Below, in pieces: positions 3,848-62,132 of a DNA stretch of 64,000 nucleotides. Position 1 is the first letter of the stretch; each line of letters begins with the position of its first letter. The stretch comes from Escherichia coli. GTDB lineage: Bacteria > Pseudomonadota > Gammaproteobacteria > Enterobacterales > Enterobacteriaceae. Where the stretch lies: NCBI RefSeq assembly GCF_003018255.1, contig NZ_CP027440.1. One strand, 5' to 3'. A model generated the notes under the pieces. It had not been told where the DNA came from. It was given only the letters and a program-made list of their open reading frames with translations, and made no database searches. The position numbers were made by a program, and so were the translations under genes.

Positions 3848-3946
3848 GCCTGATGCGCTATGCTTATCAGGCCTACGCAGTACCTGCAATATATTGAATC
3901 TGCAGGACTTTGTAGGCCGGATAAGGCGTTAACGCCGCATCAGGCA
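3848..3946. repeat. BIME: two oppositely oriented REP elements between convergent ybiT and ybiU
   Basis: GCCTGATGCGCTATGCTTATCAGGCCTAC and GTAGGCCGGATAAGGCGTTAACGCCGCATCAGGCA match the E. coli REP consensus in inverted orientation. Confidence 0.8.
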
Positions 3947-19039: not shown

Positions 19040-19215
19040 TTACGTTTGAATATTGCTTGAAAGGGTAATCACCTCACAGGAAATTATTGCCCTAAGCAAG
19101 TGTTGTAACTTTCTGCTGATTTTGTAGAATCGGGTAATTTGGTTAAAAAGCCGCAGCAAGGGACTATTTTGCAGCGGCACAGCGTTCAGACAGTTATTTT
19201 GTTAAATGTATTAAC

Positions 19216-21564
19216 ATGCTGAGTTTATACGAAAAGATAAAGATAAGGCTGATAATTTTATTTTTATTGGCAGCACTGTCATTTATTGGTCTTTTTTTCA
19301 TCATTAACTATCAACTGGTATCGGAACGCGCGGTAAAACGTGCCGATAGCCGCTTTGAACTTATTCAGAAAAACGTTGGCTATTTCTTTAAAGATATTGA
19401 ACGTTCGGCCCTGACATTAAAGGACTCACTATATTTATTAAAAAATACAGAGGAGATTCAACGCGCCGTAATTCTGAAAATGGAAATGATGCCATTTTTA
19501 GACTCGGTGGGACTGGTACTTGATGATAATAAATATTATCTCTTTTCGCGGAGGGCGAATGATAAAATCGTTGTTTATCATCAGGAACAAGTAAATGGAC
19601 CGCTTGTCGACGAGTCAGGGCGGGTTATTTTTGCCGATTTTAACCCATCGAAACGACCGTGGTCGATGGCTTCAGATGACTCTAACAACAGCTGGAATCC
19701 GGCATACAATTGCTTTGATCGTCCGGGTAAAAAATGTATCTCTTTTACGCTACGCATCAACGGCAAAGATCACGATTTGTTAGTGGTGGATAAAATTCAT
19801 GTCGATTTAAACTGGCGATATCTGAACGAGTATCTTGATCACATCAGCGCTAATGATGAAGTTCTATTTTTAAAGCAAGGTCATGAGATCATTGCCAAGA
19901 ATCAACTCGCGCGTGAAAAATTGATTATTTATAATAGCGAAGGTAATTATAATATTATTGATTCTGTCGATACGGAATATATTGAAAAAACATCAGCGGT
20001 GCCAAACAACGCATTATTCGAAATCTATTTTTATTATCCTGGTGGTAATTTATTGAACGCATCAGATAAACTTTTTTATCTGCCGTTTGCGTTCATTATT
20101 ATCGTATTGTTGGTGGTTTATTTAATGACCACTCGTGTGTTCCGTCGGCAATTTTCTGAAATGACCGAGCTGGTTAATACGCTGGCGTTTTTGCCCGACT
20201 CAACGGATCAGATCGAGGCTCTGAAAATTCGCGAAGGCGATGCGAAAGAGATTATCAGCATCAAAAATTCGATCGCGGAAATGAAAGATGCCGAAATTGA
20301 ACGGTCAAATAAATTGCTCTCACTGATCTCTTACGATCAGGAAAGCGGTTTTATTAAAAATATGGCGATTATTGAATCCAACAATAATCAGTATCTGGCT
20401 GTGGGGATCATCAAACTGTGTGGTCTGGAAGCTGTGGAAGCGGTGTTTGGTGTTGATGAACGCAATAAAATCGTCAGGAAATTGTGTCAGCGAATTGCCG
20501 AGAAATATGCGCAATGCTGCGATATCGTGACATTTAATGCCGATCTCTATTTACTCCTGTGCCGGGAAAATGTACAGACGTTTACCCGTAAGATAGCGAC
20601 GGTAAACGATTTTGACAGCAGTTTTGGCTACCGCAATCTGCGCATCCATAAGTCTGCTATTTGTGAACCTTTGCAGGGGGAAAACGCCTGGAGTTACGCA
20701 GAAAAGCTGAAACTGGCGATTTCCAGTATCCGCAACCATATGTTCTCAGAGTTTATTTTCTGTGATGATGCGAAACTCAACGAAATAGAAGAGAATATCT
20801 GGATTGCGCGTAATATTCGCCATGCAATGGAAATTGGCGAACTATTCCTCGTCTATCAACCGATCGTTGATATTAACACCCGCGCCATTCTGGGCGCGGA
20901 GGCGTTGTGCCGTTGGGTGTCTGCGGAGCGGGGGATCATTTCACCGCTGAAGTTCATTACCATTGCTGAAGATATCGGGTTTATCAATGAGCTGGGCTAT
21001 CAAATTATTAAAACCGCGATGGGTGAATTCAGACATTTTAGTCAGCGTGCGTCGCTGAAGGATGATTTCTTACTGCATATTAATGTTTCGCCCTGGCAGT
21101 TAAACGAACCACACTTTCATGAGCGTTTTACTACCATCATGAAAGAAAATGGCCTGAAGGCGAACAGCCTTTGTGTTGAGATCACTGAAACCGTGATTGA
21201 GCGAATTAATGAACATTTTTATCTCAATATTGAACAACTGCGTAAACAAGGGGTACGGATATCGATTGATGACTTTGGCACCGGTTTGTCAAACCTGAAA
21301 CGTTTTTATGAAATTAATCCAGACAGCATAAAGGTGGACTCGCAGTTTACCGGCAATATTTTTGGTACTGCGGGAAAAATTGTGCGCATTATTTTCGATC
21401 TGGCACGCTATAACCGGATCCCGGTGATTGCGGAAGGCGTAGAGAGCGAAGACGTTGCGCGCGAATTAATCAAATTAGGATGTGTTCAGGCTCAGGGGTA
21501 TCTGTACCAGAAACCCATGCCATTCTCCGCCTGGGATAAAAGTGGAAAATTAGTAAAAGAGTAG
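19216..21564 (+). CDS. pdeI: Membrane c-di-GMP phosphodiesterase (EAL domain)
   Basis: 782-aa ORF; N-terminal TM segment and periplasmic domain; C-terminal EAL motif (AEALCRW); AT-rich. Confidence 0.85.
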
Positions 21565-21571
21565 TTTACGT

Positions 21572-22900
21572 ATGTCCAGAATCAATAAGTTCGTACTTAC
21601 AGTCAGTCTGCTGATTTTTATCATGATTTCAGCAGTTGCCTGCGGGATCTACACTCAAATGGTAAAGGAACGGGTGTATAGCCTGAAACAGTCCGTTATT
21701 GATACTGCTTTTGCGGTGGCAAATATTGCTGAATATCGGCGTAGCGTGGCAATTGATCTTATCAACACGCTAAATCCCACGGAGGAACAGCTGTTGGTTG
21801 GCTTACGCACAGCTTACGCCGACTCGGTTTCACCCTCTTATTTGTACGATGTCGGTCCTTATCTGATTTCCAGTGACGAATGTATTCAGGTAAAGGAGTT
21901 CGAGAAAAATTATTGTGCAGATATTATGCAGGTTGTGAAGTATCGACATGTCAAAAATACAGGGTTTATCTCTTTTGATGGTAAAACCTTCGTCTATTAC
22001 CTCTATCCGGTAACTCACAATCGTAGTCTGATATTTTTGCTTGGTCTGGAACGTTTTTCTTTACTGTCAAAATCGCTGGCGATGGATAGCGAGAACCTGA
22101 TGTTCTCCCTGTTCAAGAACGGTAAATCGGTGACCGGTGATGAATATAACGCTAAAAACGCCATCTTCACTGTTTCGGAAGCGATGGAGCACTTCGCCTA
22201 TTTGCCGACCGGGTTGTACGTATTTGCTTATAAAAAAGACGTTTATTTTCAGGTATGTACATTGATTATTTTCTTTGCCGCATTGGTGGCAGTGATATCG
22301 GGTGCCAGTTGCCTCTATCTGGTACGCAGAGTGATTAATCGTGGTATTGTGGAGAAAGAAGCCATTATTAATAACCATTTTGAACGCGTACTGGATGGCG
22401 GGCTTTTCTTTTCGGCTGCCGATGTCAAAAAACTCTACAGTATGTATAACTCGGCATTCCTGGACGATCTGACCAAAGCGATGGGCAGAAAATCCTTTGA
22501 CGAAGATTTAAAAGCGCTGCCGGAAAAAGGCGGTTATTTGTGCCTGTTTGACGTCGATAAATTCAAAAACATTAACGACACCTTCGGTCATTTGCTGGGC
22601 GATGAAGTGTTGATGAAAGTGGTGAAAATCCTTAAATCACAGCTCCCCGTAGATAAAGGTAAAGTCTACCGCTTCGGCGGTGACGAATTTGCGGTGATTT
22701 ATACGGGTGGAACGCTGGAAGAGTTGCTATCGATTCTAAAAGAAATTGTTCATTTCCAGGTGGGAAGCATTAATTTAAGCACCAGTATCGGTGTAGCGCA
22801 TTCAAATGAATGTACTACCGTCGAACGCTTGAAAATGCTGGCGGATGAGCGACTGTATAAGAGTAAGAAAAACGGCAGGGCGCAGATTAGCTGGCAGTAG
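21572..22900 (+). CDS. dgcI: Membrane diguanylate cyclase (GGDEF domain)
   Basis: 442-aa ORF; GGDEF motif (RFGGDEF) near the C-terminus; 7-nt gap after pdeI. Confidence 0.85.
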
Positions 22901-22969: not shown

Positions 22970-23299
22970 TTACTTTGCAAAAACTTCCGGCCCTTTTATT
23001 GCCAATGTATTCAAAATACGTAATGCCGGGCCGCTCGGTTTTATTTCATTACGTTCCCATTTCGAGACACTTTCTTTTGACATTCCCATTGTATGTGCCA
23101 GCACGGATTGTGACATGCCGTATCGGGTGCGGATGGCTTTGATCTCTTCACCCGTCATTGATTTGACTTTGGCTATACGGGCGCTGACTTCACGAGCTTT
23201 GACCATGACGGCAATGGCATCAACTTCACTATCAGACATCAGGCCCAGTGCATTCAGTTCCTTTGCATCTTCCAGCATCATTTGTAATTTATCGCTCAT
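22970..23299 (-). CDS. HTH (XRE/MqsA-C-terminal-like) DNA-binding protein; candidate antitoxin and autorepressor
   Basis: 109-aa ORF; C-terminal HTH region (YGMSQSVLAHTMGMSKESVSKWERNEIKPSGPALRILNTLA); GAGGTG Shine-Dalgarno; ATG overlaps the upstream ORF's stop by 11 nt. Confidence 0.7.
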   Translation of the reverse strand: MSDKLQMMLEDAKELNALGLMSDSEVDAIAVMVKAREVSARIAKVKSMTGEEIKAIRTRYGMSQSVLAHTMGMSKESVSKWERNEIKPSGPALRILNTLAIKGPEVFAK

Positions 23300-23675
23300 T
23301 TTTCACCTCAATCAAAAAGCCAGTTTCGATCAAATCCTCTATTTGCTTATTGCTAAAGGCCAGAAATGCATTTGCCATTTTTTTGTAGGCCGCCAGTTCA
23401 TCATCTTCGATTTCTTTGGTTCCTTTACTGCTTAGACCACTCTTGGACCAACCATCATAAAAAAACACATGATTTGCTGATTTAAAAAAGATAATTGTTC
23501 TGGCTCCACCACTCTTTCCTTGTTGGAGGGGTAAACGTTTTTTGATGACACCGCTACCTAAATCAGCCTCCCATATGCCCTGAATCACTTCTTCAGCGGC
23601 AGCCATGAGAACTTTATCGTGAATACCAAGTTTTTTCGTGCTTTGGCTGAATCGTCTTGCCTTATACACACCCAT
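23289..23675 (-). CDS. RelE/ParE-superfamily-like toxin candidate (DUF1044/COG4737-type, GKSGGxR motif)
   Basis: 128-aa ORF; AGGA Shine-Dalgarno 7 nt upstream of the ATG; conserved DLGSGVIKKR...GKSGGARTIIFF core typical of this toxin family; AT-rich relative to flanking core genes. Confidence 0.65.
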   Translation of the reverse strand: MGVYKARRFSQSTKKLGIHDKVLMAAAEEVIQGIWEADLGSGVIKKRLPLQQGKSGGARTIIFFKSANHVFFYDGWSKSGLSSKGTKEIEDDELAAYKKMANAFLAFSNKQIEDLIETGFLIEVKNER

Positions 23676-23690
23676 ACATCCATCCTTGTG

Positions 23691-27917: not shown

Positions 27918-29120
27918 ATGACGCAATACTCCTCTCTCCTTCGTGGTCTTGCAGCGGGTTCTGCATTTTTATTCCTTTTTGCCCCAACGGCATTCGCGGC
28001 GGAACAAACCGTTGAAGCGCCGAGCGTGGATGCGCGTGCATGGATTTTAATGGATTACGCCAGCGGTAAAGTGCTGGCAGAAGGCAATGCGGATGAAAAA
28101 CTGGACCCCGCGAGCCTGACTAAAATCATGACCAGCTATGTGGTTGGGCAGGCGCTTAAGGCCGATAAGATTAAACTCACCGATATGGTGACGGTCGGTA
28201 AAGATGCCTGGGCGACGGGAAATCCGGCACTGCGTGGTTCATCGGTAATGTTCCTCAAACCGGGCGATCAGGTTTCGGTGGCAGACTTGAACAAAGGTGT
28301 GATTATCCAGTCCGGTAATGACGCCTGTATTGCGCTGGCTGATTACGTTGCCGGGAGCCAGGAGTCATTTATTGGTCTGATGAATGGTTATGCCAAAAAA
28401 CTGGGTCTGACCAACACTACCTTCCAGACGGTGCACGGTCTGGATGCGCCGGGGCAGTTCAGTACCGCGCGCGATATGGCATTGCTGGGTAAAGCATTGA
28501 TCCACGATGTGCCGGAAGAGTACGCCATTCATAAAGAGAAAGAGTTCACCTTCAACAAAATTCGTCAGCCTAACCGTAATCGTCTGCTGTGGAGCAGCAA
28601 TCTGAATGTTGATGGCATGAAGACAGGAACCACGGCAGGCGCGGGATATAATCTGGTTGCTTCGGCTACCCAGGGCGATATGCGTTTAATCTCCGTAGTG
28701 CTGGGGGCGAAAACTGACCGTATCCGTTTTAATGAGTCTGAGAAATTATTGACCTGGGGCTTCCGTTTCTTTGAAACCGTGACGCCAATTAAACCTGATG
28801 CCACATTTGTGACTCAGCGCGTCTGGTTTGGTGATAAGAGCGAAGTGAATCTCGGGGCAGGCGAAGCGGGCTCAGTGACCATACCGCGTGGGCAGCTGAA
28901 AAACCTGAAGGCGAGTTATACGTTAACGGAACCGCAGCTTACCGCACCGCTGAAAAAAGGTCAGGTTGTCGGCACCATTGATTTCCAGCTTAACGGTAAA
29001 TCCATTGAGCAGCGTCCGCTGATCGTGATGGAAAATGTGGAAGAGGGCGGATTCTTTGGTCGGATGTGGGATTTCGTGATGATGAAATTCCATCAGTGGT
29101 TCGGCAGCTGGTTCTCTTAA
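27918..29120 (+). CDS. dacC: D-alanyl-D-alanine carboxypeptidase (PBP6)
   Basis: Start giving [27 protein letters not shown] (signal peptide); SxxK active-site motif (SLTK); SGN motif. Confidence 0.9.
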
Positions 29121-35149: not shown

Positions 35150-35168
35150 TAGATAAATTTTAGACAAC

Positions 35169-35247
35169 AAAAAACCCACCAACCTTGAACCGAAATGGCG
35201 GGGTTGATGGGCTCCACAAAATGGGGACATCAAAGAAAAGCAGTGGC
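35169..35247 (-). ncRNA. rybB: RybB small RNA (sigma-E-dependent, Hfq-binding)
   Basis: Minus-strand read GCCACTGCTTTTCTTTGATGTCCCCATTTTGTGGAGCCCATCAACCCCGCCATTTCGGTTCAAGGTTGGTGGGTTTTTT matches RybB, including the terminator hairpin and U-tail. Confidence 0.9.
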
Positions 35248-39156: not shown

Positions 39157-40059
39157 GTGAAAATTGCCATATTGTCCCGGGATGGAACGCTCTATTCGTG
39201 TAAGCGGCTGCGTGAAGCCGCTATACAGCGCGGTCACCTGGTTGAAATTCTTGATCCGCTTTCTTGCTACATGAACATAAATCCTGCGGCGTCTTCTATT
39301 CACTACAAAGGCCGCAAGTTACCCCATTTTGATGCTGTGATCCCGCGTATTGGTACCGCCATTACCTTTTATGGGACGGCGGCACTGCGCCAGTTCGAGA
39401 TGCTGGGGAGCTATCCGCTCAATGAGTCGGTCGCCATTGCCCGGGCGCGTGACAAATTGCGTTCCATGCAACTGCTGGCGCGTCAGGGCATCGACCTGCC
39501 TGTCACGGGCATTGCGCATTCGCCGGATGATACCAGCGATTTAATCGACATGGTCGGTGGTGCGCCGCTGGTGGTCAAGCTGGTTGAAGGCACGCAGGGA
39601 ATTGGTGTCGTGCTGGCGGAGACGCGCCAGGCGGCGGAAAGCGTGATTGACGCTTTCCGCGGTCTGAACGCGCATATTCTGGTGCAGGAATATATCAAAG
39701 AGGCGCAAGGGTGCGATATCCGCTGTCTGGTTGTTGGCGATGAAGTGGTCGCTGCGATTGAACGGCGGGCGAAAGAGGGCGATTTTCGTTCCAATTTGCA
39801 TCGTGGCGGCGCGGCAAGCGTCGCCAGTATCACACCACAGGAGCGTGAAATCGCGATAAAAGCCGCGCGAACGATGGCGCTGGACGTTGCTGGTGTGGAT
39901 ATTCTGCGTGCTAATCGCGGGCCATTGGTGATGGAGGTGAATGCGTCGCCGGGGCTGGAAGGAATAGAAAAAACCACCGGTATCGACATCGCGGGTAAAA
40001 TGATCCGCTGGATCGAACGCCACGCTACGACGGAATATTGCCTGAAAACGGGTGGTTAG
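39157..40059 (+). CDS. rimK: Ribosomal protein S6 glutamate ligase (ATP-grasp)
   Basis: 300-aa ATP-grasp ORF. Confidence 0.9.
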
Positions 40060-40623: not shown

Positions 40624-40973
40624 TAACTCCTTTCGAGTACGCAGTCGCTGCCGCAGTGACTGCGTGCTGCAAAATTATCTGCTATTCTTAACCTTTTCTT
40701 AAAGATTATTTCACTTCTCTTGTGCCGATTTGGCTTTATCACATAGAGCAAATACGCATAAAAATTTGTTAAATACCGTTTTTTAATCCGAGCTATAGTC
40801 TCAAACCCTGGCTAAAGTTATTCTTGCGATGCTTTTATATAGCGAGCAGTGCTGGCCGGGAGAGAGTTCTCTTTTCTTACACCGCGCCGATAAAAAATAT
40901 GCACGTTTATTGCATATCTTTCAGTGTGACAACTTTTGTTCGTTTGTTAACGAACTTTCAGAAGGAAAGAGAT

Positions 40974-46863: not shown

Positions 46864-47595
46864 TTACTGCGGGAACCACTGGTCATTGATTTTCTGATAT
46901 GTACCGTCAGCTTTAATTGCTGCCAGCGCGTTATTCAGTTTTTCCAGCAGAGCTTTGTTATCCGGACGTACAGCGATACCCAGGCCGGTGCCGAAGTATT
47001 GCGGATCGGTCACTTTTTCAGTCGCAACGCCCAGTTGCGGGTTGGTTTTCAGCCATTCATTAACCACCGCTGTGTCACCAAATACCCCATCAATACGGCC
47101 ATTTTTCAGATCGATAAAGGCATTCTGATAACTGTCATAGGAGACAGTTTTCACTTCCGGGTGCTGATCCTGAATATATTTCTGGTGCGTAGTACCGTTT
47201 TCCATCCCAATACGTTTGCCTTTCAGATCGGCAAACGTTTTGTAGGTATCTTTTTTGGCAATCACGACGGCTGAGTTTTCATAGTAGGGCGTGGTAAACG
47301 ATACCTGTTTGCTACGCTCTGGAGTGATATCCATACCGGAGATTACGGCGTCATATTTTCTGAATTTCAGTGACGGGATCAGGCTGTCGAACGCGTGATT
47401 AGTAAAAGTACATTCTGCCTGCATTTGTTTGCACAAGGCTTTTGCCAGGTCGATATCAAAGCCGACAATCTCATTATTAGCACCTATAGATTCAAAGGGT
47501 GGATAGGTGGCTGAAACGCCAAAATTGATTTTCTCTGCGGCAGAAGCACCGAAAGTAAAGGAAGCAAGTAATGCGGCAAGAACTAACTTTTTCAT
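46864..47595 (-). CDS. artJ: Arginine ABC transporter periplasmic binding protein
   Basis: ATG giving MKKLVLAALLASFTFGASA (signal peptide, 243 aa); paralog of artI. Confidence 0.9.
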   Translation of the reverse strand: MKKLVLAALLASFTFGASAAEKINFGVSATYPPFESIGANNEIVGFDIDLAKALCKQMQAECTFTNHAFDSLIPSLKFRKYDAVISGMDITPERSKQVSFTTPYYENSAVVIAKKDTYKTFADLKGKRIGMENGTTHQKYIQDQHPEVKTVSYDSYQNAFIDLKNGRIDGVFGDTAVVNEWLKTNPQLGVATEKVTDPQYFGTGLGIAVRPDNKALLEKLNNALAAIKADGTYQKINDQWFPQ

Positions 47596-47666
47596 GATGG
47601 AACTCCCGTCTGTCAATCTTATGATTTTTGGCCGTGTCTGCGGCATGGGATAACAATGCCATCAAG

Positions 47667-47684
47667 TGAATTTATATGCAATAA
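47667..47684. promoter_or_regulatory. Candidate ARG box (ArgR operator) upstream of artJ
   Basis: GTGAATTTATATGCAATA matches TnTGAATwwwwATTCAnw with one mismatch in the second half-site. Confidence 0.4.
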
Positions 47685-47710
47685 ATATGATTAAATAATT
47701 TAAATGAAAT

Positions 47711-47744
47711 AAAAAAAGACGGACAACTTAGTGAGTTGTCCGTC
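47711..47744 (-). terminator. Rho-independent terminator of the artPIQM operon
   Basis: Stem GACGGACAAC / GTTGTCCGTC with 7-nt loop, followed on the minus strand by a run of seven T. Confidence 0.8.
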
Positions 47745-47769
47745 TTCATTATAAGAATTTATGCACTAT

Positions 47770-47806
47770 GTAGGCCGGATAAGGCGTCCGCGCCGCATCC
47801 GGCATC
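47770..47806. repeat. REP element downstream of artM
   Basis: GTAGGCCGGATAAGGCGTCCGCGCCGCATCCGGCATC matches the REP consensus. Confidence 0.8.
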
Positions 47807-47820
47807 AGCACGCAGCCAAA

Positions 47821-48489
47821 TTAATTCCTTCGCTCAAACGCCAGCGCTTTACGCTCGATCAGACGCATCATCAGCGTCAGCAGGCCGTTAACGACCAGAT
47901 AAATAATCCCTGCCGCGCCGAACACCATGACATCGTAGGTGCGTCCGTACAACAACTGGCTGTATCCCATCACTTCCATCAGCGTAATGGTGTAGGCCAG
48001 CGAGGTACTTTTGAACACCAGCACTACTTCGTTGGAATAAGAAGAGAGCGAGCGTTTAAAGGCATACGGCAGCAGGATCGCCAGCGTATCTTTTTTGCTC
48101 ATTCCCAGGGCGCTACAGGACTGCCACTGACCTTCCGGGATCGCACGAATTGCACCGTAAAACAGCTGCGTGGTATACGCCGCACTGTTCAGCGACAACG
48201 CAATCAGCGCACACAGCCACGGTTCTGACAACAAATGCCACAGTGCCGGATACTCCTGCAACGTCGGGAACTGGCCCGGTCCGTAATAAATCAGGAAGAT
48301 CTGCACCAGCAGCGGCGTACCGGTAAACAGCGTGATATAGCCCCGCACCAGCCACACCAGCACCGGCGTTTTCAGCGTCAGGATGATGGTAAAAATCAAT
48401 GCCAGAATCAGTGCCACAATCAGCGAGGCAACGGTTAGCGTCAGGCTGGTGTGCAACCCTTTCATCAGTTCGGGTAAATACTCAAACAT
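47821..48489 (-). CDS. artM: Arginine ABC transporter permease
   Basis: 222-aa hydrophobic ORF; start overlaps the artQ stop. Confidence 0.9.
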   Translation of the reverse strand: MFEYLPELMKGLHTSLTLTVASLIVALILALIFTIILTLKTPVLVWLVRGYITLFTGTPLLVQIFLIYYGPGQFPTLQEYPALWHLLSEPWLCALIALSLNSAAYTTQLFYGAIRAIPEGQWQSCSALGMSKKDTLAILLPYAFKRSLSSYSNEVVLVFKSTSLAYTITLMEVMGYSQLLYGRTYDVMVFGAAGIIYLVVNGLLTLMMRLIERKALAFERRN

Positions 48490-49205
48490 TAGCTGGGCCT
48501 CCGCTCAAAACGTGTCGCGCGCAGGTCAATGCGTTTGAGAATGTACTGACTGAGCAGGGTGATCACCAGGTAAATCGCCGCCGCCACAATGTACCAGGTA
48601 AACGGTTCCTGGGTACGGGTAGCGATGCTTTTGGTTTGTAGCATTAAATCATTCACACTAATCAAACTGACCAGCGCGGTATCTTTCAGCAGCACCAGCC
48701 ACTGGTTACCGAGACCCGGCAGCGCATGACGCCACATCTGCGGCATCACCAGACGGAAAAAGATAGCCGATTTCGACAGCCCCAGCGCCTGACCAGATTC
48801 CCACTGGCCCACCGGCACCGCTTTCAACGCGCCGCGCAGCGTTTGCGAGGCATAGGCGGCATACAGCAGTGACAGAGCGATGACACCACAAAGGAACGGG
48901 CTAACGTCGAAGTTCTCAATGTCCATCTGCACCGGGATCTGCACGAACCCAAGATTGATAGTGAAGCCATCCGAAAGCGTCAGCAGCAGCTGCGAGGAGC
49001 CAAAATAGATAAACAGCACCACCAGAATTTCTGGCAGGCCGCGCAGAACCGTCACCAACGCTGAACCTGCCCACGCGACAGGACGCCATTTTGCAGACTC
49101 CCATACCGCAAAGAACATCGCCAGCGCCAGCCCGACAATCAATGCACAAACGGCAAGGCCGACGGTCATCCCGGCGGCGCTTGCTAAAGGAAAAAATTCA
49201 TTCAT
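48489..49205 (-). CDS. artQ: Arginine ABC transporter permease
   Basis: 238-aa hydrophobic ORF. Confidence 0.9.
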
Positions 49206-49211
49206 CAGGAA

Positions 49212-49943
49212 TTACTTCTGGAACCATTTGTTGTAGATGGTTTCGTAAGTGCCATCTTTCTTCACTTTTTCCAGCGCAGTGTTGAGTTTCTGCTGCAGTT
49301 CAGTGTTGCCCTGGCGTACTGCGATGCCGAGGCCAGTACCGAAGTAATCTTTATCGGTCACTTTATCGCCCACTGCCGCCAGTTTCGGGTTATCTTTCAG
49401 CCATTCGGTTACCACTGCGGTGTCACCAAATACGCTGTCGATACGACCGTTTTGCAGATCCAGTTTTGCGTTCTGGTAACTGTCATATGGCACGGTAGTG
49501 ATTTCCGGATGCTTATCCATAATGAACTTCTGGTGTGTCGTCCCGTTCTGAACGCCGACTTTTTTGCCTTTCAGCTGATCAACACTGGTGTATTTGCCTT
49601 GCTGACCCACAAACAGGGCAGAGTTGTCATAGTACGGGGTGGTAAACAGCACCTGCTTTTCACGCTCCGGAGTGATATCCATGCCCGCCATCACTGCTTC
49701 TACGCGACGGAATTTCAGGCTTGGGATCAGGCTGTCAAACGCCTGGTTAGAGAAAGTGCAGGTTGCATCAATCTCTTTACACAATGCCTGCGCCAGGTCG
49801 ACATCAAAACCAACGATCTGGTTGTTTGCATCAATCGATTCAAACGGAGGATAGGAGGCTTCGGTGGCAAAACGAATGGTTTCGGCTGCTGTGGCGGAAA
49901 GACTAAAACCTGCAATTAACGCGGCAATCAGAACTTTTTTCAT
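49212..49943 (-). CDS. artI: Arginine ABC transporter periplasmic binding protein
   Basis: 243-aa ORF with signal peptide MKKVLIAALIAGFSLSATA. Confidence 0.9.
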   Translation of the reverse strand: MKKVLIAALIAGFSLSATAAETIRFATEASYPPFESIDANNQIVGFDVDLAQALCKEIDATCTFSNQAFDSLIPSLKFRRVEAVMAGMDITPEREKQVLFTTPYYDNSALFVGQQGKYTSVDQLKGKKVGVQNGTTHQKFIMDKHPEITTVPYDSYQNAKLDLQNGRIDSVFGDTAVVTEWLKDNPKLAAVGDKVTDKDYFGTGLGIAVRQGNTELQQKLNTALEKVKKDGTYETIYNKWFQK

Positions 49944-49960
49944 TGTTGTTATCCCGAATC

Positions 49961-50689
49961 TTAGTGAGAGAGATAGTTTTTAAATGCTTCGGTTTGCGGC
50001 TCGGTAAAGCAGCTCGCGTCGCCTTGTTCTACGATATGACCGTTTTCCATATACACCACTCGGCTGGCGGTTTTACGCGCCACTTCAACTTCGTGGGTGA
50101 CGATCACCTGGGTAATATTCGTTTCTGCCAGCTCACGAATGATGCTGACGATTTGTGCCGTAATTTCGGGGTCCAGTGCGGCGGTCGGTTCATCGAACAG
50201 CAGTACCTGCGGTTCCATCATCAACGCACGGGCAATAGCAACACGCTGCTGCTGACCTCCAGAAAGATGCAGCGGGTAACGATCGCTATAAGGTTTGAGA
50301 CGCAGACGTTCCAGCAGTTTTTCTGCACGGGCCAGCGCCTGATCTTTACTCAACCCCAGTACACGACAGGGCGCTTCAATCAGGTTTTGCTGCACGGTCA
50401 GATGCGGCCACAGGTTGTATTGCTGAAACACCATGCCAACGTTACGACGCAAATCGCGAATCGCTTTGTCAGAGGGGGTTTTGGTGAAATCGAAATGGTT
50501 GCCTGCAATGTTGAGCGTACCGGAGCGCGGCATCTCAAGCAGATTGAGTACACGCAGCAGCGAGCTTTTACCCGCGCCGCTGGGGCCAAGTAACACCAGC
50601 GTTTCGCCCTGTGGGCAATCCAGCGTGATATCGAACAGCGCCTGATGCGCGCCGTAGAAGCAATTAATGCCGTTTAATTGAATACTCAT
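49961..50689 (-). CDS. artP: Arginine ABC transporter ATPase
   Basis: ATG giving [21 protein letters not shown] (242 aa); Walker [10 protein letters not shown]; LSGGQQQR signature. Confidence 0.9.
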
Positions 50690-50744
50690 TGACACTCGTA
50701 TACTGGCAGTCTGATAGCTATTGAGGTCGAAGATAGTACCTTTG

Positions 50745-50762
50745 ACAGAATAATTATGCAAT
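50745..50762. promoter_or_regulatory. Candidate ARG box upstream of artP
   Basis: CAGAATAATTATGCAATA resembles the ARG-box consensus with one mismatch in each half-site. Confidence 0.35.
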
Positions 50763-50906
50763 ATTTCTGCTTTAAAAGTTAAAAGCAAAGCGCATTATTC
50801 AATAAACATAGCACAAAATAACGGGGGCGGTGGTCGGCGAGCATAAATGTCGGCATTCCTCACGAAATGCCGTACAATTTACGGGGTTTATTGGTTGATC
50901 AAGACG

Positions 50907-61812: not shown

Positions 61813-62132
61813 GAAAAACCAGTCCTTGCAAAGAAGATTCGAAATGCGCGATGACACACTACTGAAAGCGGAAGGACGAGTAAAGTTGCAATTAAAAGGA
61901 AATGTTATGCATCAGAGGGGGATTTTTAATTCTATATGAGTGTTTAGCATTGTTGCGCTCCTTTCATGTGCAATGCCATATAAAGCCACTGGCGCAGGGA
62001 GCGGCCAGTTGCCGCCGCTCCCTGCCCCCCCGGCCTTCGGGGAACGCCTCGGCGATTTTAACGCCACCAACACCCGTGCGGTTTGTAACGTCGAAGATAA
62101 AACCACCAGGGCAGACAACATGCCAATGCTAA

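Follow-up and report, generated by a model that had tools for sequence, protein, structure and literature searches.

Two-box ARG operators over the artJ and artP promoters of an Escherichia coli chromosome: register, statistical strength and conservation

Introduction

ArgR control of artJ and artPIQM is already known, having been documented in E. coli since 2007 and dissected further in 2019, and the closest described systems are the operators of these same genes in strain K-12 (Caldara et al. 2007, J Mol Biol; Torres Montaguth et al. 2019, PMC6640053). According to the summary of Caldara et al. 2007 in PMC6640053, the control regions of artJ and artP each hold two 18-bp boxes with 3 bp between them, to which the ArgR hexamer binds when loaded with arginine; it overlaps the −35 element to the same degree at the two promoters and represses both. 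At PartJ, RNA polymerase is sterically excluded by ArgR (PMC6640053). Repression of PartP by ArgR is small in wild-type cells (1.5-fold) and amounts to 4.4-fold without Lrp, which is the stronger artP repressor (2.6–7.8-fold versus 1.5–4.4-fold for ArgR), stands in competition with ArgR and protects the DNA to about −10, covering the ARG boxes; artJ is not regulated by Lrp (PMC6640053). The reconstructed ArgR regulon counts artPIQM among its core members and artJ among its taxon-specific ones (PMC5343134). ChIP-exo of ArgR revealed a protected region of about 93 bp in vivo; the main text of Cho 2015 (ChIP-exo) names neither artJ nor artP.

The ARG-box operators of argF, argI, argA, argECBH, argD, argG, argR and carAB P2 likewise consist of two 18-bp imperfect palindromes which match WNTGAATWWWWATTCANW and lie over promoter elements, with a spacer of 2–3 bp as compared to 3 bp at the art operators. 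These classical operators govern biosynthesis genes, whereas the art operators govern uptake genes. The hisJQMP/argT cluster (HisJ, ArgT, HisQ, HisM, HisP) encodes a homologous polar-amino-acid ABC importer with, as in art, one paralogous pair of binding proteins and one of permeases, and hisJ, like artJ and artP, bears an ArgR box pair.

In this study, we located both art operators in a 64-kb stretch of an E. coli chromosome, referred to as the window, and determined their sequences, statistical strength, spacing, position relative to the promoter and conservation. ArgR binding, repression and steric exclusion of RNA polymerase are taken from the K-12 publications and would apply here by analogy.

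Results

The window contains rlmC, artJ, artM, artQ, artI, artP and ybjP, with all art genes on the minus strand. From the ORF list, the RefSeq annotation and Pfam, artJ (46864–47595; SBP_bac_3, E = 7e-43) was assigned as the gene of a periplasmic arginine-binding protein forming its own transcription unit, artM (47821–48489) and its paralogue artQ (48489–49205) as permease genes (both BPD_transp_1), and artI (49212–49943; SBP_bac_3), the paralogue of artJ, as the gene of a second binding protein, while artP (49961–50689; ATG at 50689–50687), the first gene of artPIQM, encodes the ATPase according to annotation and its ABC_tran domain. With two SBP_bac_3, two BPD_transp_1 and one ABC_tran protein, the cluster is by Pfam content a polar amino acid ABC importer of the HisJQMP-like kind. 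These gene models coincide with those annotated by RefSeq in an E. coli genome whose art stretch is identical. As a coordinate map, the annotation of strain JNE23-011 proved exact across the art region; elsewhere its positions are shifted by as much as about 22 nt, since over most of its length the window shares only 99.55% identity with this strain, with 8 gaps. The artJ–artMQIP region is matched in 5424 of 5426 complete E. coli genomes, and the art stretch displays 95–99% identity in 5405 of the 5426 records.

The artPIQM unit ends in an intrinsic terminator (47715–47747, minus strand) made up of a 14-pair stem and a subsequent T run; K-12 shares it, with one T fewer in the tail. The T-rich tail reaches to about 47705 and adjoins the artJ distal ARG box. 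Between the artM stop codon and this terminator lies a palindrome (47770–47805, GTAGGCCGGATAAGGCGTCCGCGCCGCATCCGGCAT) which, going by the REP consensus, we take to be a REP-type element; here the K-12 interval from artM to artJ is longer by about 66 bases.

A sequence-only reading of this DNA had proposed that sequences resembling the ArgR operator lie upstream of both artJ and artP. The two strings it gave each occur once in the window, GTGAATTTATATGCAATA at 47666–47683, 71 nt upstream of the artJ start codon, and CAGAATAATTATGCAATA at 50746–50763, 57 nt upstream of the artP start codon. Both operators are indeed present, but the strings were out of register, the start and end given for the proposed span (47667–50762) were each 1 nt off, and the second box of each operator had been missed. 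The canonical 18-bp ARG-box register WNTGAATWWWWATTCANW begins 1 nt before both strings, which in the earlier register obtain negative matrix scores (−15.9 and −22.8) and represent the promoter-proximal half only of a two-box operator.

For scoring, a weight matrix was trained on the 16 boxes that make up eight K-12 arginine-biosynthesis operators, with the art sites excluded; a consensus search of the eight arg and car control regions had yielded one clear box pair in each, and the resulting ArgR matrix was palindromic and of 16 bits. As controls, the known hisJ operator scored 20.6 bits and the upstream region of argT, which is described as apparently not ArgR-regulated (PMC6640053), scored −4.2.

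At artJ, the promoter-proximal box AGTGAATTTATATGCAAT (47665–47682) has 1 mismatch to the consensus, scores 21.1 bits and is nearly invariant in 79 orthologues. Its distal partner TATGATTAAATAATTTAA (47686–47703), 3 bp away, scores 8.9 bits, giving a pair score of 30.0. At artP, the proximal box ACAGAATAATTATGCAAT (50745–50762), which is the same in K-12, has 2 mismatches and scores 18.0 bits, while the distal box TCTGCTTTAAAAGTTAAA (50766–50783), again 3 bp away and at least 90% conserved at most positions, scores 5.8 bits, for a pair score of 23.9. Both operators thus combine a strong promoter-proximal box with a degenerate distal one at the canonical 3-bp spacing, and the distal boxes, weak alone, fit the range of the weak partner boxes at argD (3.2 bits) and argR (4.1 bits). 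This arrangement of two 18-bp boxes, 3 bp apart, over the −35 element is the one described for K-12 in PMC6640053, box positions having been matched to the Caldara 2007 description as summarised there and not to its figures. The K-12 artP operator is identical to that of the window and the K-12 artJ operator differs in 1 of 39 bases. A full-text literature search for the operator strings gave no match. In addition, single ARG-like boxes are found at 47750–47767 and, over the artP start codon, at 50673–50690. The former (10.5 bits) was rejected as a third ARG box upstream of artJ, being kept only within Escherichia, with a median best score at that position of 4.2 bits across 79 loci.

At both promoters, the operator overlaps the predicted −35 element, TTGCAT, which lies within the proximal box on the coding strand, at 47681–47676 for artJ and at 50761–50756 for artP, where it is invariant in 74 of 74 orthologues. 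Both promoters follow the pattern TTGCAT or TTGAAT, 17 nt, then a conserved −10-like hexamer. For artJ the predicted −10 hexamer, placed from this spacing, is CATTGT (47653–47658, minus strand), preceded by a TG at 47661–47660 which suggests an extended −10; the block TGGCATTGT is 70–99% conserved in 80 distinct orthologous sequences. For artP it is TACTAT (50733–50738, minus strand), found as TACTAT or TAGTAT in 67 of 74 orthologues. From the published numbering, in which a G+C-rich stretch (76% G+C) spans −96 to −116, the artP +1 was placed at 50723–50728, which fits the TTGCAT-17-TACTAT promoter. A simple consensus promoter scan of the artP region did not return this promoter, because TTGCAT fits just 3 of 6 consensus positions. 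The scan proposed TTAACT-18-CATAAT inside the boxes, which was discarded since its start at about 50746 is at odds with the −96 to −116 published for the G+C-rich stretch.

Across Enterobacteriaceae, the artJ box pair is present in 79 of 79 loci (17.6–37.5 bits, median 29.1) and the artP box pair in 74 of 74 (14.5–25.3 bits, median 19.5), with a spacer of always 3 bp, and the layout over the −35 element is retained across some 30 named genera. The artJ distal box varies in orthologues; the box 3 bp from the proximal one forms the best pair in 78 of 79. At artP, the entire control region is at least 90% conserved, including the 5′UTR and the Lrp zone, beyond the boxes. A conserved block upstream of the artP operator (50793–50822) coincides with the zone of Lrp nucleation and protection published at about −67 to −95, as judged from the conservation profile and the footprint coordinates of PMC6640053 mapped via our +1 estimate. 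Because the whole artP control region is so highly conserved, conservation of the artP operator cannot be credited to ArgR alone. One could argue that the artP sequence is retained chiefly for its promoter function (−35 and the AT-rich DNA upstream of it) and for its place in an Lrp nucleoprotein region, with ArgR playing a minor role there at most, an argument to which the stronger repression by Lrp, its protection over the ARG boxes and the lower pair score of artP compared to artJ, in the window as in the orthologue medians, would all lend weight. However, of all ARG boxes in the 64 kb the artP proximal box still comes second, its partner lies at exactly 3 bp, and such an explanation would supplement ArgR at artP rather than replace it and is inapplicable to artJ, which escapes Lrp regulation (PMC6640053). 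We consider it very unlikely.

We favour with high confidence the reading of both sites as ArgR operators, which their scores support and none of our results contradicts; the background scanned comprised the 64-kb window together with about 0.7 Mb from orthologous loci. Within the window, the proximal boxes of artJ and artP take the first and second rank of all positions, followed by a next best of 13.8 bits, and their pair scores compare with 7.4 bits for the next independent pair. Both pairs fall within the leave-one-out range of the true arg operators (18.0–40.1 bits), so that the matrix scan bears out the proposed likeness to ArgR operators. Shuffling the dinucleotides of the whole window 200 times never yielded a pair of 23.8 bits or more, and when the AT-rich intergenic region of either operator was shuffled 5000 times, all pairs stayed below the score observed there. 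In the 80 related loci, the remaining positions, about 700,000 in number, all scored less than 17.6 bits. Single matches at 27960, 19205 and 1048 have no partner box and are within chance. That the art sites themselves are a chance likeness in AT-rich promoter DNA, unrelated to ArgR, is hardly credible: both regions are AT-rich (41% G+C), single boxes of 10–14 bits do arise elsewhere in the window and shuffled windows have a best single box of 14.6 bits on average, but this explanation already fails because of the shuffle statistics for the pairs, and it is further opposed by the top two ranks, by the 3-bp-spaced pair kept in every orthologous promoter and by the ArgR binding to art operator DNA reported in the account of PMC6640053.

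It had also been suggested that the two units share paralogous binding-protein and permease genes as a trace of duplication. ArtJ and ArtI are 64% identical over 241 aa and their genes are split between the units. ArtM and ArtQ are paralogues as well (30% identity, E = 4e-30), but both lie within artPIQM, so that the permease pair is not split across units. The proposed duplication holds up, and artI and artJ occur together wherever the flank reaches, in 74 of 80 Enterobacteriaceae loci, with the gene order artP-artI-artQ-artM-artJ. We rejected the idea that promoter and operator had been duplicated along with the binding-protein gene: the artJ and artP operators agree at 26 of 39 positions, no higher than unrelated ARG operators (mean 24.1 of 39), and therefore nothing suggests a joint duplication of the two operators.

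Discussion

With high confidence, the two sites are the canonical ArgR operators of arginine uptake in E. coli; that ArgR binds and represses there is taken from K-12 publications, on DNA identical or nearly identical to that of the window. Arginine repression of both units, as the sequence-only reading had assumed, has been published for K-12 in the account of PMC6640053, which includes reporter assays; the K-12 operator DNA equals that of the window at artP and departs from it by 1 nt at artJ. We propose a model in which each operator, two 18-bp imperfect palindromes 3 bp apart at roughly −20 to −58 of a putative sigma-70 promoter, would be occupied by arginine-loaded hexameric ArgR when arginine is plentiful. 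Bound ArgR would block RNA polymerase from the promoter, so that less ArtJ, the high-affinity binding protein, and less ArtPIQM transporter would be made. The artP operator would in addition overlap the downstream edge of the extended Lrp-binding region, and ArgR and Lrp would therefore compete as repressors. It should be noted that this competition was absent from the sequence-only reading.

The single base that separates the artJ operators of the window and K-12 is the outermost base of the distal box, at position 47686, which is T in the window strain and in the other Escherichia loci sampled and C in K-12; the distal box scores 8.9 bits with T and 3.0 with C. A strain-level tuning of artJ repression via this base is conceivable, though we regard it as rather unlikely. 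Should the outer base play a part in cooperative binding of the hexamer, the K-12 operator used in all biochemistry would be a weakened variant, and artJ repression would be tighter in most E. coli than in K-12. As a weaker second option, the single boxes at 47750–47767 and 50673–50690 could act as auxiliary contacts inside the ChIP-exo-protected region of about 93 bp.

With ArgR control of both units already established, the importance of these findings reaches little beyond correct annotation. We herein provide the exact coordinates of both boxes of each operator in the right register, together with quantitative evidence that the art sites stand far above background, and add that the two-box, 3-bp design over the −35 element has been kept throughout the Enterobacteriaceae genera compared.

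Results

The ARG box, an 18-bp imperfect palindrome bound by the arginine repressor ArgR, reportedly has the consensus WNTGAATWWWWATTCANW, which is said to go back to Charlier 1992 and Maas 1994. In register with it, the box proximal to the promoter is located at 47665–47682 for artJ (AGTGAATTTATATGCAAT, one mismatch) and at 50745–50762 for artP (ACAGAATAATTATGCAAT, two mismatches), each with a weaker, distal partner box 3 bp farther from the gene (47686–47703 and 50766–50783, respectively), so that each site constitutes a 39-bp two-box operator. The sequence-only reading had proposed one operator-like string before each gene, and both strings occur exactly once, at 47666–47683 and 50746–50763, 71 nt (artJ) and 57 nt (artP) upstream of the start codons. 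While the sites themselves could be confirmed, the register was one nucleotide late, giving strongly negative matrix scores, and both distal boxes had been missed. The literature, including the 2019 study of ArgR and Lrp at the art promoters by Torres Montaguth, Bervoets, Peeters and Charlier (PMC6640053), describes the two-box operator as the canonical E. coli design.

For the matrix scan suggested by the sequence-only reading, we derived a palindromic log-odds matrix (16 bits information) from 16 boxes, leaving out the art sites and taking the best pair, chosen by mismatch to the consensus, from each of eight K-12 control regions (carAB, argF, argA, argG, argR, argD, argE/CBH, argI). We take the recovered pairs to agree with the classical operators. 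Across the window, the proximal boxes of artJ (21.1 bits) and artP (18.0 bits) rank first and second, the next best reaching 13.8 bits. As box pairs they score 30.0 and 23.9 bits, compared to 7.4 for the next independent pair in the window and leave-one-out scores of 18.0 to 40.1 for the training operators. When the window was shuffled 200 times with dinucleotide content preserved, no pair of at least 23.8 bits arose, and neither observed pair score was attained in 5000 shuffles of the respective intergenic region (41% G+C). As positive control we used the operator of hisJ, which ArgR is known to target and which is outside the training set (20.6 bits), and as negative control the argT upstream region (−4.2 bits); argT is apparently not under ArgR control (PMC6640053).

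Both proximal boxes contain ATTGCAT on the coding strand. A 17-nt gap separates its TTGCAT from a downstream hexamer, which is TACTAT (50738–50733) for artP and CATTGT (47658–47653), preceded by TG, for artJ. These hexamers are kept across orthologues: TTGCAT is invariant in 74/74 artP sequences, 67 of which carry TACTAT or TAGTAT, and artJ orthologues display TTGCAT or TTGAAT at the corresponding position. Mapped on the window, the stretch with 76% G+C described at −96 to −116 of artP (PMC6640053) fits a +1 at 50723, 50724 or 50728, within ~3 nt of the TACTAT prediction, and does not fit an alternative artP promoter from a simple scan, which we rejected. From the promoter positions, the operators thus span roughly −20 to −58, enclosing the −35 element, with which ArgR sites are described to overlap (PMC6640053).

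The segment 46800–51500 matches E. coli chromosomes in 5424 of 5426 complete genomes. Annotation and ORFs place artJ (46864–47595), artM (47821–48489), artQ (48489–49205), artI (49212–49943) and artP (49961–50689), all on the minus strand, between flanking rlmC and ybjP. An intrinsic terminator on the same strand (47747–47715), shortly upstream of the distal box of artJ, separates artPIQM from artJ, which supports two transcription units. Between it and the artM stop codon lies what is presumably a REP-type palindromic element (47770–47805), where K-12 carries ~66 extra bases; repeat copy number therefore appears to differ among strains. The suggested paralogy holds for artJ/artI (64% identity over 241 residues) and for artM/artQ (30% identity, E = 4e-30), and the domain families of the Art proteins are those expected for a polar-amino-acid ABC importer. 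However, only artJ/artI is split between the two units as proposed, while artM and artQ both belong to artPIQM. Both binding-protein genes are present in 74/74 loci with flank reaching them, so the duplication predates the Enterobacteriaceae.

The window holds further ARG-like boxes. Single boxes at 27960–27977 (13.8 bits) and 19205–19222 (13.5 bits), one just within the dacC 5' end and one just upstream of pdeI, are partnerless and inside the shuffled-sequence range. Likewise partnerless are 50673–50690 (11.2 bits), over the artP start codon, and 47750–47767 (10.5 bits), between REP element and terminator upstream of artJ, the latter retained within Escherichia only. The potF upstream region (40624–40973) holds only a weak pair of 4.8 bits, although a comparative study includes potFGHI in the ArgR regulon of some lineages as a taxon-specific member. 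Elsewhere, Rfam matches above the gathering score on the minus strand mark the sRNAs RybB (35166–35244, 104 bits) and ES036/CssrF (3869–3911, 41.6 bits). In the near-identical strain JNE23-011, a gene for a RelE/ParE-family toxin and a helix-turn-helix gene are annotated between dgcI and rimO (~22979–23684, minus strand, coordinates up to ~22 nt off), a pair which to our knowledge is absent there from K-12. The JNE23-011 annotation also lists pdeI (~19226–21573) and rimK (~39158–40059) as frameshifted pseudogenes in that strain. The alignment to JNE23-011 breaks at 62003–62028 in the lysO–aqpZ intergenic region, with ~136 extra bases in JNE23-011, and identity falls to 98.5% downstream.

An ArtJ search with one genome per species yielded 80 Enterobacteriaceae loci, from Escherichia, Salmonella, Citrobacter, Klebsiella, Raoultella, Enterobacter, Kosakonia, Buttiauxella, Cedecea, Atlantibacter, Trabulsiella and Franconibacter among others, with the order artP-artI-artQ-artM-artJ in every locus with sufficient flank. 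The best box pair precedes artJ in 79/79 usable loci (17.6–37.5 bits, median 29.1) and artP in 74/74 (14.5–25.3 bits, median 19.5), with a 3-bp spacer in all orthologous operators. In the rest of the loci (~700,000 positions), none reached at least 17.6 bits and only four at least 14.5 bits.

Discussion

The ArgR operators of artJ and artPIQM are already known in detail. ArgR excludes RNA polymerase at PartJ; at PartP it competes with Lrp, both acting as repressors, with repression by ArgR of 1.5-fold with and 4.4-fold without Lrp, and by Lrp of 2.6-fold with and 7.8-fold without ArgR (PMC6640053). In a gammaproteobacterial regulon reconstruction, artPIQM is a core and artJ a taxon-specific ArgR member (PMC5343134). 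The anticipated arginine repression of both units is supported by the top two matrix ranks and by the published K-12 repression.

The artP control region is conserved throughout, including the 5' UTR and a block mapping to the published Lrp footprint, so its conservation is not attributable to ArgR alone. Many positions of the 5' UTRs of artJ (47596–47650) and artP (50690–50730) are at least 90% conserved across Enterobacteriaceae; post-transcriptional control could be the source, and the sRNA SdsR acts on artPIQM in Salmonella (PMC6640053). At artJ, orthologues show almost no change in the proximal box. The distal box varies in sequence, yet in 78/79 loci the best pair is still formed with a box spaced 3 bp from the proximal box, a pattern as expected if selection acts on binding and not on a particular sequence.

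Compared to K-12, the artP operator and promoter DNA is identical and the artJ operator differs at one outermost base of the distal box; K-12 results therefore carry over. This base, 47686, is T in the window and the other sampled Escherichia loci and C in K-12 MG1655, with distal-box scores of 8.9 and 3.0 bits, respectively (+5.9 bits for the window base). Judged by these scores, the K-12 artJ operator may be a weaker variant.
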